From a phage, in the sequence record PZ379176.1: a stretch of 64,000 bases of DNA. One strand, written 5' to 3'. The notes below the pieces were generated by a model. That model made no database searches. It was not told the origin of the DNA and saw only the letters and a program-made list of their open reading frames with translations. Of the stretch, positions 5,242-33,098 are shown piece after piece (the first letter of the stretch is position 1; each line of letters starts with the position of its first letter). Made by a program: the position numbers and the translations under genes.

Positions 5242-6162
5242 GAGCACTCACTAAGCAAATCATCGCTTCAGTGAAAAGCGTAACAACGGCTAACAGTTGC
5301 ATAGTGTGAGAAAGCACACTGATAGATTTACCGCTCTTTAATAATTTAAACATTCTCCTATATCGGTTGAATATGCTTGATGATAATAACCATCGGAAAG
5401 CATACCAGATAAAACGGCGTAAAACTCCCTAAATTATCAGGGTAAACAGTTTTACATTCCCTTACTGGAAACGTCACCATTGATAAACGGATTCATTGAG
5501 TACACGCAAAGACTTAAGCTAATCGCCCACGGTTAAGGGTAGCGGCGGTCATCGCTAACATGGTGCTACGGTGAAAGAAGTTAATCAGGGTAGGCAATCC
5601 CGACGAATTAACGCTCAATTGAGAGCGGCGGTGAATGGTTAAAAAGTGGCAAATTGCTATTTAACAATAAGGTTTAGTGTGAACGTTTACGATGTGAACG
5701 GCTTGAGATTCATCTTATGATGAAAGTACATAGTCGGTTTATGTAGTAAACTTGCCGAAAGATATAAAACGTCGGAACATTAGACGGTCAATGACTCTTT
5801 CGCAATAGTATCCCGTAGTGGGCGATGACTAGCGATTGAGAGTTGATATAAAAGGATAGGCGAGAGCGAAAGCAAAGTAAACGATATTGCCGACGGTTAC
5901 AATAACGTAACTAATTAGAGTCGGACGCACTGCCTTATTGTGATGATTGATCATCGCTATCAGGTCGGCTTCGTTTATAGCGACTAATTAAAGATACCAG
6001 ATGAAACATCACGGATAAGGGGGCGGCAAGGTTAACTCCTGATAAGACCGCCCCGCTTACCTATAACTACTTACAATGAGTGGTTATAGTTAAGTCAATA
6101 GTGACTTGAATTGCTCATAGAGAGCGGGGCAATAGCGCCCTTACAATTGAAAGGTGAATATT

Positions 6163-12883: not shown

Positions 12884-12959
12884 GCGCTCTTAGCTCAATG
12901 GATAGAGCAGTAGCCTTCTAAGCTATTGGTTACAGGTTCGAGTCCTGTAGGGCGCACCA
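12884..12959 (+). tRNA. tRNA-Arg (anticodon UCU), CCA encoded
   Basis: Manual cloverleaf: acceptor GCGCTCT/AGGGCGC, D-arm GCTC/GAGC, anticodon loop CTTCTAA, T-arm ACAGG-TTCGAGT-CCTGT, discriminator A + CCA. Confidence 0.85.
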
Positions 12960-31464: not shown

Positions 31465-31662
31465 ATGAAAAAGTGGATTGTTCGTGTACATGATAACACG
31501 ACTGGAGAGTTAGTAGCTGTAGATTTTGTTAAGACTCGAGAGCACGCACGTAGGGTCAAAAATCAATACAAGTCTACTTTTAGACTTAATAAGGTTACAC
31601 TAGGAAAAGCTATCGTGAATAGTGAAGGTGCTTTTTGTGTCAACAGTAAGGTTTATTACTAA
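31465..31662 (+). CDS. small protein, tandem paralog 1 of 3
   Basis: 65 aa ending in YY; similar to next two ORFs. Confidence 0.45.
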   Translation: MKKWIVRVHDNTTGELVAVDFVKTREHARRVKNQYKSTFRLNKVTLGKAIVNSEGAFCVNSKVYY

Positions 31663-31871
31663 TGAGACCAATCACTATGAGAAAATTCTGGTTAGCGAAG
31701 ATTAAGTGGGCATCAGGTGGTATGACTATGACTGCACTCCCTACTCGTCAACAAGCTCGAGATTTTAAAAAGACTATGCTTACTGGTGACGTGGTTAATA
31801 GTATCAGCATCCATAAGGCCAAGGAGTATTCTTCTGGTCGTGTTTATATCAGCGGAAAGGTACATTACTAA
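31662..31871 (+). CDS. small protein, tandem paralog 2 of 3
   Basis: 69 aa ending in HY; TAATG overlap. Confidence 0.45.
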   Translation: MRPITMRKFWLAKIKWASGGMTMTALPTRQQARDFKKTMLTGDVVNSISIHKAKEYSSGRVYISGKVHY

Positions 31872-32080
31872 TGAAAAAGATGTGGGCTATTCATGTTGTT
31901 TGGGATCTTGAGCAACACATGAGAAAAGATAACATCAAATTGTTTGACACTCGCAAAGAGGCTCGTATTGCTAAGAAACAGTTGAAGACTCTGGGCACAA
32001 TAGTAAAAAGCGCTGACATACATCGCTGGTATGAAGACCCTAACACTGGTTCTTTTATGTCTAAAGTAATTTACTACTGA
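31871..32080 (+). CDS. small protein, tandem paralog 3 of 3
   Basis: 69 aa ending in YY; TAATG overlap. Confidence 0.45.
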   Translation: MKKMWAIHVVWDLEQHMRKDNIKLFDTRKEARIAKKQLKTLGTIVKSADIHRWYEDPNTGSFMSKVIYY

Positions 32081-32152
32081 TTGGTAGTAGATATGATAAC
32101 TCTCAAATGTATATAGAGTACAATAAGAATTTGTATTTTACAGGAGAGAGTT

Positions 32153-32482
32153 ATGTTAGATTTGAGTAAAGTGGCCCCGCCCACTGAAGAGATTACAAAA
32201 TCCAAGGTGATGCAACAGTTTTATCATCGTGATATGCTTGGTCGCTTTATCAAGAATCGTGATGTTGTTGCTTGGTCTATTGGTAATCAGGGATATCTGT
32301 TGAAGGTTCTTCAGGTTACAGGTTCAACTGCTAAGCGAGTTAAGGTGTATGACCCTGAAATGGGGCGTTCTAAGTCAGTAGACCCACAGAACTGCATCGT
32401 AATTACCCAGCAGGTAATGGATAATATTGCACGTAACGTTGCTAACTCAGTTGAACTTGATGGAGAAAACCCAAATGCATAA
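32153..32482 (+). CDS. hypothetical protein (109 aa)
   Basis: ORF track; SD GGAGAGAG. Confidence 0.45.
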   Translation: MLDLSKVAPPTEEITKSKVMQQFYHRDMLGRFIKNRDVVAWSIGNQGYLLKVLQVTGSTAKRVKVYDPEMGRSKSVDPQNCIVITQQVMDNIARNVANSVELDGENPNA

Positions 32483-33038
32483 GAATGTTTTTGATTTACC
32501 TGAGATTGGTCGTGACAGCTATAGCATGTTAGACCGGTCCGACCTATCAATCTCTCGCCTTGAAACAATGCAAGGCATGATTAGTGGAAACAGCCTAGAA
32601 CACATCCTGAGCTGCTTACAAGCTAACATGGAACTCTTGCATATCAAAGCTAAAAACTACCACTGGAACGTCTCTGGTGCAGGATTTCAGGGTGTTCATG
32701 GTATGTTTGATGAGCTGGAAGATTACGCACGACAGGTAGGAGATCGTATTGCTGAACGTATGCGTTACCACTGTGTTAAAGTGGATGCTACAGCAGCTAA
32801 TTATCTTTCTCATGCTTGGTTCTCAGAGGGGAATGCTGATCTAGACATGGACGGTATGCTCTCTGATATGTGCATGACCTTGATGTGTATTATTGAGAAG
32901 ATGGATGAGTTTGATGGTGATTTAGCCTCCTACCCTGTCGATCAGAGTATGCTTCAAGAAATTAATGAAGGTCTTGGCAAGTATTGCTACTTCGTCAAGA
33001 GCAACATGTCCCATTCAAGTGGTGACGTGTCTTACTAA
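32460..33038 (+). CDS. Dps-like ferritin-superfamily protein
   Basis: LQANMELLHIKAKNYHWNVSGAGFQGVHGMFDELEDY...DRIAER matches the Dps core signature; start at 32460 or 32475. Confidence 0.6.
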   Translation: MEKTQMHKNVFDLPEIGRDSYSMLDRSDLSISRLETMQGMISGNSLEHILSCLQANMELLHIKAKNYHWNVSGAGFQGVHGMFDELEDYARQVGDRIAERMRYHCVKVDATAANYLSHAWFSEGNADLDMDGMLSDMCMTLMCIIEKMDEFDGDLASYPVDQSMLQEINEGLGKYCYFVKSNMSHSSGDVSY

Positions 33039-33098
33039 AACCTCCGCCCTGTCTCCTAACCCGAGGTGGGGCGAACTTATTTATAAGGATATAGATAT

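Follow-up and report, generated by a model that had tools for sequence, protein, structure and literature searches.

A Dps-family mini-ferritin with a conserved ferroxidase centre in the replication gene cluster of phiEco32-like phages

The phage protein analysed here, the orthologue of gp67 of phage phiEco32 and referred to below as gp67, is almost certainly a member of the Dps family of mini-ferritins; it carries the complete set of inter-subunit ferroxidase residues, its gene is under strong purifying selection, and it probably serves to sequester iron and to detoxify peroxide while the phage replicates its DNA. The gene lies in a stretch of 64,000 nucleotides (sequence record PZ379176.1; hereafter, the window), which derives from a Kuravirus (phiEco32-like podophage; Gordonclarkvirinae). 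The question that it raises is why a mini-ferritin with an intact catalytic site has been retained throughout a lineage of lytic enterobacterial podophages with prolate heads. Three features sharpen this question, i.e. the position of the gene as the second one after a phage sigma factor motif, its coupling to gene 68, and the acidity of a protein that carries a "DNA-binding" label.

The identification as Dps is correct and already known. RefSeq has called phiEco32 gp67 a "DNA binding protein" since 2008 and notes it as a "member of the Dps family", and two papers, on phages SU10 and Privateer, already discuss the gene and describe its conservation in all prolate C3 podophages. Specifically, the SU10 paper counts CDS67, with its Dps domain, and CDS68 in the small set of genes shared by all five C3 podophages whose sequences were then available. 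What the present analysis adds is the conservation of the catalytic residues across five phage genera with a low dN/dS, the marked acidity of the Kuravirus protein and its want of a Lys-rich tail, the overlap with the conserved basic gene 68, and the position of the two genes behind a phage sigma factor motif. The searchable literature contained no report in which a phage Dps was examined by biochemistry or genetics. Separately, many GenBank records name this gene "integrase"; this label is wrong and could unjustifiably exclude these strictly lytic phages from therapy panels.

Results

Boundaries of the gene and identity of the window

The 6 kb around the gene are 93–98% identical to the best records listed of the ~100 matching phiEco32-like coliphage records. 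An earlier reading of the window from the sequence alone had placed a Dps-like ferritin at 32460–33038. The open reading frame and its end stand: the peptide LHIKAKNYHWNVSGAGFQGVHGMFDELEDY...DRIAER lies within a plus-strand frame that terminates at 33038, with the TAA stop codon at 33036–33038. The start does not, and is moved downstream. The ATG at 32460 is in frame and lies 15 nt upstream of the ATG at 32475, and the latter is the likelier start because a GGAG is located 9 nt upstream of it, because it overlaps the stop codon of the upstream frame (ATGCATAA), because the equivalent Met is the start in 13 of 15 homologues, and because the RefSeq annotation of phiEco32 uses the equivalent start and gives a product of 187 residues. 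From this start, the gene codes for 187 amino acids followed by the stop codon, corresponding to 21.2 kDa (Table 1). Minus-strand frames beneath the gene reach at most 85 residues and none of them has support. Neither Rfam nor ARAGORN detected an RNA element within or close to the gene; their sole result was a tRNA-Arg at 12884–12959.

Table 1 Features at the gene 67 locus, in coordinates of the window
Feature	Position	Strand	Basis
Sigma-70-like promoter TTTACT-N16-TATGAT with internal palindrome TACTAC-N6-GTAGTA	32070..32097	+	Consensus scan
AAATGTATA, candidate gp36 sigma factor element (consensus tAATGTAtA)	32105..32113	+	40 nt upstream of gp68 start
gp68 (phrog_10984), 109 aa, basic, upstream partner	32153..32482	+	ORF; phiEco32 annotation; adjacency in relatives
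Dps-family mini-ferritin CDS, phiEco32 gp67 orthologue	32475..33038	+	ORF and start context; Pfam, PHROG and PDB matches; AF2 model
Lineage-specific N-terminal extension, ~40 aa, acidic/neutral, fast-evolving	32475..32594	+	Profile, pLDDT, charge, dN
Inter-subunit ferroxidase residues H63, W64, H75, D79, D90, E94 (helices A, B)	32661..32756	+	Residue conservation
Terminator-like hairpin (suggestive), 11 bp stem, 7 nt loop, weak T tract	33045..33073	+	7 nt after Dps stop

gp67 is a Dps protein by profile and predicted fold

The HMM search that the earlier reading had proposed gave 31 bits for the ferritin-like family PF00210 of Pfam, above its gathering score of 24.5 (E 2.8e-7), and PHROG 3636 matched over the full length of the profile (E 3.9e-55). 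Among PDB sequences, the best 55 phmmer matches are all of the Dps type (top E 2.4e-9). We also searched PDB with a family profile built from 15 relatives and obtained 50 sequences at E ≤ 1e-5, all of them Dps, headed by Bacillus anthracis Dlp-2 (5.9e-15), with matches spanning profile positions ~40–178. When the family was searched by profile against 1.84 billion representative proteins, 3391 proteins were matched at E ≤ 1e-3, and only seven clusters at E ≤ 1e-30, below which the matches drop to generic Dps. All nine ordinary long matches that were checked carry PF00210; the tenth match checked (P0032; 1156 residues with 20 matched stretches) was rejected as a repeat or low-complexity artefact.

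The AF2 model of gp67 has a mean pLDDT of 80.8 and exceeds 85 across most of the core. Helices are predicted at residues 41–65, 72–98, 107–112 (the short BC helix), 125–150 and 154–177, and the predicted topology is that of Dps, i.e. a four-helix bundle with a short helix in the BC loop; a fifth, C-terminal (E) helix is not present in the model. Foldseek agrees with this, as its best 50 matches in PDB comprise only Dps proteins (TM-score on the target, 0.8–0.9). Classical 24-mer ferritins or bacterioferritins account for none of the 50 PDB profile matches, and the two PDB matches named bacterioferritin are a "putative" entry (3KWO) and a Dps–bacterioferritin fusion (5XGO). A 24-mer ferritin or bacterioferritin was ruled out based on the all-Dps PDB matches together with the model lacking an E helix. 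We conclude that the identification of gp67 as a Dps-like ferritin is supported by its sequence and profile matches, by the predicted fold and by the conserved residues.

By tblastn, the Dps gene was detected in 137 of 50,697 phage records (E ≤ 1e-5). These matches include 98 near-full-length copies with at least 80% identity in Kuravirus, Suseptimavirus and relatives, and the reading frame is intact in ~98 of ~100 Kuravirus/Suseptimavirus-type records. A second tier at 30–45% identity comprises Moazamivirus (7-11, SE131), Privateervirus, Cronobacter phages and Lahexavirus, followed by a few distant matches in cyanophages and Streptomyces phages. Thus, the suggestion that Dps homologues are uncommon in phages is right for phages overall but not for this lineage, in which Dps is a core gene. 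Recent capture from the host was rejected based on the ~18% identity to E. coli Dps (here and below, the sequence that we take to be that of E. coli Dps) and the score with the enterobacterial Dps equivalog model of NCBIfam, NF006975, which reached 34.5 bits against a cut-off of 114 with only residues 57–101 aligned; because of the latter score, orthology (equivalog status) to enterobacterial Dps was rejected as well. The gp67 family is a small, old, phage-specific branch of Dps.

The ferroxidase residues are complete and conserved

The six ferroxidase residues of gp67 (Table 1) are spaced exactly like H51, W52, H63, D67, D78 and E82 of E. coli Dps. All six are invariant across 15 close relatives and are identical in Suseptimavirus SU7, Privateer, 7-11, Aeromonas phage LAh_9 and E. 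coli Dps; K60 shares this identity across the five phage genera and E. coli Dps. In an alignment of 19 sequences including cellular Dps, H63, H75, D90 and E94 are invariant. The sequence-only reading had claimed a ferroxidase centre and had named loss of conservation of its residues as one observation that would count against this claim; instead, the complete residue set is present and all of it is conserved across the five genera. Compared with SU7, dN/dS is 0.055 for the whole gene and 0.037 for the core, with synonymous sites being saturated. The gene is, therefore, under strong purifying selection.

Gene 67 is coupled to gene 68 downstream of two promoter-like elements

The stop codon of gene 68 overlaps the start of the Dps gene by 8 nt. 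The gp68 family adjoins Dps in Kuravirus, Suseptimavirus, Privateer, LAh_9 and a metagenomic contig (L015) in which the Dps protein is only 33% identical; in phage 7-11, the gp68 homologue is located 1.3 kb upstream of Dps. The gp68 proteins are basic, with a pI of 8.8–9.7. The AF2 model of gp68 has a mean pLDDT of 46.9, Pfam gave no match to the protein, and its profile found only weak matches to beta-propeller blades in PDB (Tako8, 2.7e-5, with no significant stretch). Similarly, the PADLOC defence models gave no meaningful match for Dps, gp68 or gp66.

The gap of 72 nt upstream of gene 68 holds two promoter-like elements (Table 1), and the block with both elements is conserved in SU7 despite the saturated synonymous sites. 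AAATGTATA at 32105–32113 is the only exact copy of this 9-mer in the window; with one mismatch allowed, there are 28 matches compared to 24 expected, i.e. no enrichment, and the sigma-70 scan overall found two sites compared to nine expected by chance, i.e. fewer. Because the scans of the whole window are not enriched, the assignment of the promoters rests on their position, on the conservation in SU7 and on published mapping. For the last of these we rely on the literature: the published phiEco32 list has a gp36 element upstream of gene 68, consistent with the experimentally detected phage-specific promoters, and the motif at 32105–32113 corresponds to the published P68 site. According to the SU10 paper, the middle cluster starts with CDS68, which is preceded by promoters of both types, and the sigma-70 promoter among them has good −35 and −10 elements.

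Downstream of the Dps gene, the hairpin at 33045–33073 has a free energy of −15.9 kcal/mol and is only marginally more stable than shuffled sequence (z −1.4). Its stem is identical in SU7 while the loop differs. At most, these features are suggestive of a terminator.

Discussion

A proposed function in iron and peroxide detoxification

Our working hypothesis is that gp67 sequesters iron and detoxifies peroxide while phage DNA is being replicated, and we consider this function probable. By analogy with characterised Dps proteins, we infer that twelve gp67 subunits would form a hollow shell with 23 symmetry, in which each two-fold interface would hold two ferroxidase sites, each composed of H63, H75 and D79 from one subunit and D90 and E94 from its partner, with W64 adjoining. 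These sites would oxidise Fe2+, with H2O2 as the preferred oxidant, and the resulting Fe3+ would be stored inside the shell. With both Fenton reactants removed, less hydroxyl radical would arise near the replicating phage DNA. The benefit to the phage would be that replicating DNA as well as thiol- and radical-dependent nucleotide enzymes are spared iron-catalysed oxidative damage.

Expression from the sigma-70-like site and the gp36 element would place gp67 and gp68 together as the first genes of the middle cluster, and gp67 would still be produced once the phage has silenced the transcription by which the host would otherwise induce its dps. In phiEco32, gp79 inhibits sigma-70 transcription, and induction of the host dps gene should accordingly fail. 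This rationale is incomplete, since the Dps gene is also kept by phage 7-11, which reportedly leaves host transcription running. We note that E. coli already has a Dps of its own and that an added value of the phage copy is assumed.

The N-terminal extension, charge and DNA binding

At the N-terminus, the proteins of Kuravirus and Suseptimavirus are extended by ~40–45 residues that have no counterpart in any PDB Dps, with profile matches beginning at position ~35–45. The extension has a pLDDT below 62, with a low-confidence helix predicted at residues 18–37, and evolves about five times faster than the core (dN 0.33 compared to 0.065), while a helix motif, S-x-x-R-L-E/D-x-M, is conserved within it. 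The N-terminal 45 residues have a net charge of −3 and a single Lys. The homologues of Privateer, 7-11 and LAh_9 lack the extension and have short basic tails instead; in the Privateer and 7-11 homologues, these short N-termini are rich in Arg (MARDMIRSRPSLRR and MLGARPKRP). The entire gp67 protein, which contains five Cys and fifteen Met, has a pI of 4.71 and a net charge of −14.8 per subunit, and ranks among the most acidic 4% of 143 representative Dps sequences.

DNA binding is established for some Dps proteins, and E. coli Dps condenses DNA by means of a Lys-rich N-terminal tail. A flexible Lys/Arg-rich tail of this type was not found at the N- or C-terminus of gp67, the latter reading SHSSGDVSY. 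Consequently, the "DNA-binding-shell signature" that the sequence-only reading had also claimed could not be recognised in a protein with a pI of 4.7 and an acidic N-terminus with one Lys, and, as far as the sequence tells, DNA binding by way of a basic tail is improbable for Kuravirus gp67. Because the protein is very acidic and without a Lys-rich tail, we regard the label "DNA binding protein" as doubtful for Kuravirus gp67. The Arg-rich N-termini of the Privateer and 7-11 homologues, on the other hand, imply that DNA binding may differ between members of this phage clade.

These observations bear on the possibility that gp67 is a DNA-binding or DNA-compacting protein that coats phage or host DNA and protects it against nucleases, restriction enzymes or radicals. 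Besides the label in the records and the Arg-rich relatives, such a role would be in line with the basic nature of the co-translated partner gp68 and with the report that Gordonclarkvirinae are unusually resistant to restriction-modification by a mechanism that is not known. We consider it unlikely, given a charge of about −15 per subunit and of −3 with one Lys in the N-terminal 45 residues; moreover, a middle gene product would come too late to shield the incoming DNA from restriction, and a purely structural role would not need such strict conservation of catalytic residues.

Gene neighbourhood and a possible role in iron supply

In every lineage examined, the Dps gene is located within the cluster for replication and nucleotide metabolism, with dCTP deaminase, thioredoxin, ThyX and PhoH as shared neighbours. 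In Lahexavirus, the oxygen-sensitive anaerobic reductase NrdD/NrdG is encoded nearby, and in Privateer and LAh_9 a stand-alone ATP-cone protein is encoded directly downstream of Dps. This constant location inside a nucleotide-metabolism module would also fit a protein that stores iron for, or delivers it to, iron-dependent enzymes of dNTP supply, or one that disturbs the iron regulation of the host; the adjacency to NrdD/NrdG, a reductase that needs an Fe-S activase, and the ATP-cone protein directly after Dps point in the same direction. However, no iron-dependent enzyme is annotated among genes 55–75 of phiEco32, and ThyX is a flavoenzyme. The Dps proteins characterised so far serve mainly in detoxification and have small cores, which also counts against a role in iron supply. 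We view such a role as improbable.

Detection in particles and a possible association with the capsid

Detection of the protein is taken from published work. In SU10, Dps was identified by mass spectrometry with six peptides and 35.8% coverage in a sample that was PEG-precipitated with no gradient and that also contained DNA polymerase and thioredoxin. In Privateer, the homologue was detected by mass spectrometry of whole particles that had passed through both step and equilibrium gradients of CsCl, a finding on which the authors comment. Co-purification with CsCl-banded virions is not what a purely cytoplasmic enzyme predicts.

The presence of the Privateer homologue in CsCl-gradient particles, for which all data are from Privateer, raises the possibility that gp67 is associated with the virion, carried inside the prolate capsid of C3 podophages or on its surface, and not solely cytoplasmic. 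The Dps gene is core to the prolate C3 lineage, and among predicted viral structures from uncultured phages there are Dps-fold domains fused to prohead proteases, so that a capsid-linked Dps is not absurd. Nevertheless, the gene belongs to the middle (replication) cluster and not to the late structural cluster; the SU10 detection comes from material in which DNA polymerase and thioredoxin were likewise precipitated; and the SU10 cryo-EM paper names gp20–24 as head-internal ejection proteins, with no mention of Dps in its main text or in the supplements searched. On general grounds, dense, iron-loaded ferritin-like shells could also band together with phage in CsCl. We therefore give virion association little chance. 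With even less confidence, we speculate that gp67, perhaps together with gp68, is in physical contact with the genome or the prolate capsid of the phage, where it would either shield the DNA as a complex or be cargo that is packaged or attached to the capsid. If so, the association might contribute to the resistance of Gordonclarkvirinae to restriction-modification, and the acidic N-terminal helix of gp67 would be a targeting or partner-binding segment.

Finally, that gp67 is a decaying or non-functional ferritin-like relic, as its score far below the cut-off of the NCBIfam Dps equivalog models (34.5 compared to 114) might suggest, is hardly credible and is effectively refuted by a dN/dS of ~0.05, the catalytic residues kept in five genera, ~98 intact reading frames and the detection by mass spectrometry.

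Comparison with known Dps proteins

The protein considered here and phiEco32 gp67 (phi32_67, YP_001671812.1; PHROG 3636) are products of the same gene, with 99.5% amino acid identity and a single substitution, S152 here and T in phiEco32, and the neighbours are the same, with gp68 upstream and gp66, thioredoxin and ThyX downstream. Outside this lineage, Dps of Lactobacillus myophages (LP65, Semele), of the gut 'Gratiaviridae' and of Synechococcus phage S-SRM01 are also phage-borne and have the ferritin-like Dps fold; however, they are at most 28% identical to gp67 or similar only at the level of fold, belong to unrelated lineages and have no gp68 partner. Dps genes in other phages have been interpreted in the literature as a defence against oxidative stress.

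The structurally characterised bacterial proteins B. anthracis Dlp-2 (1JIG), B. subtilis MrgA (2CHP), M. smegmatis Dps2 (2Z90/4M35) and L. innocua Dps (1QGH) have in common with the phage protein the four-helix bundle with a BC helix as well as the ferroxidase ligands, i.e. H, H and D together with D and E, and the adjoining Trp. They are 22–27% identical to gp67 over ~140 residues, with TM-scores on the target of 0.8–0.9. Compared to them, gp67 alone has the extra N-terminal segment of ~40 residues, predicted to form a helix, and is much more acidic. E. coli Dps, at ~18% identity, has the same catalytic residues and overall fold as gp67 but differs from it by its Lys-rich N-terminal tail.

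Genes and repeats around the Dps gene

The Dps gene has a recurrent upstream partner: members of the gp68 family, which are 88-117 aa in length, overlap or abut it in several phage genera and in one metagenomic contig (L015), and gp68 of the window shows 100% identity to that of phiEco32. A gp68 profile gave only weak matches in the PDB, to beta-propeller blades, and the AF2 model of the protein (pLDDT 47) was of too low confidence for use. Upstream of gp68 lie three tandem paralogous small genes, all of which match phrog_4939.

Two repeats are present in the promoter region. SU7, a Suseptimavirus relative, keeps the whole block of palindrome and inverted repeat, although synonymous divergence is saturated; this block may act as an operator, or it may form a regulatory structure in RNA.

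Gordonclarkvirinae are reported to be remarkably resistant to restriction-modification systems, with no modification pathway or inhibitor known in them, and dCTP deaminase and nucleotidyltransferase genes are suspected by the authors to be behind this resistance (PMC11990801). Both genes are found in the window just upstream of the Dps region. Over the 64 kb window, Rfam and ARAGORN gave no match besides a single tRNA gene.

Features in the window, and genes that follow Dps in the Privateer and LAh_9 loci
Feature	Position	Size	Identity or family	Remark
Three tandem paralogous small genes	window 31465-32080	65, 69, 69 aa	phiEco32 gp71, gp70, gp69	
Perfect palindrome	window 32072-32089		TACTAC-N6-GTAGTA	between -35 and -10 of sigma-70-like promoter
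Second inverted repeat	window 32099-32119		ACTCT...AGAGT	flanks gp36 (phage sigma factor) promoter element on both sides
gp68	window 32153-32482		phrog_10984	basic protein
tRNA-Arg(TCT) gene	window 12884-12959			Rfam / ARAGORN
Stand-alone ATP-cone protein	L003 (Privateer) 5398-5694		PF03477	directly downstream of Dps gene
Stand-alone ATP-cone protein	L005 (LAh_9) 5429-5701		PF03477	directly downstream of Dps gene

Naming in deposited records

In many GenBank records (for example, those of IME267, ES17, DE5, CHD5UKE1, EcoN5, IMEP8, 172-1, and MLP3), the counterpart of the Dps gene (window 32475-33038) is named "integrase", while no integrase features were found in the protein that it encodes. 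This mislabel could cause strictly lytic phages that are candidates for therapy to be flagged as temperate by mistake.

Dps in other proteins and genera

Outside the window, a Dps-like fold region lies inside three BFVD predicted viral structures (A0A6J7XDU5, A0A6J7WPK9, and A0A6J7WIS1; 333-763 aa) labelled "prohead protease", and these models hint at a capsid-targeted ferritin-like cargo in some phages. Predicted viral structures also place Dps domains in other uncultured-phage proteins of 290-680 aa. Distant Dps relatives include one protein with two Dps domains (P0096, 777 aa) and one Dps-DUF6321 fusion (P0131, 406 aa); P0032 (1156 aa, 20 matched stretches) was rejected as a repeat or low-complexity artefact.

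The gene 3' of Dps differs between genera. In the Privateer and LAh_9 loci, which represent two distant genera, it encodes an ATP-cone protein of 90-98 aa, whereas in Kuravirus the same position is held by the 59-aa membrane protein gp66 (phrog_9296).
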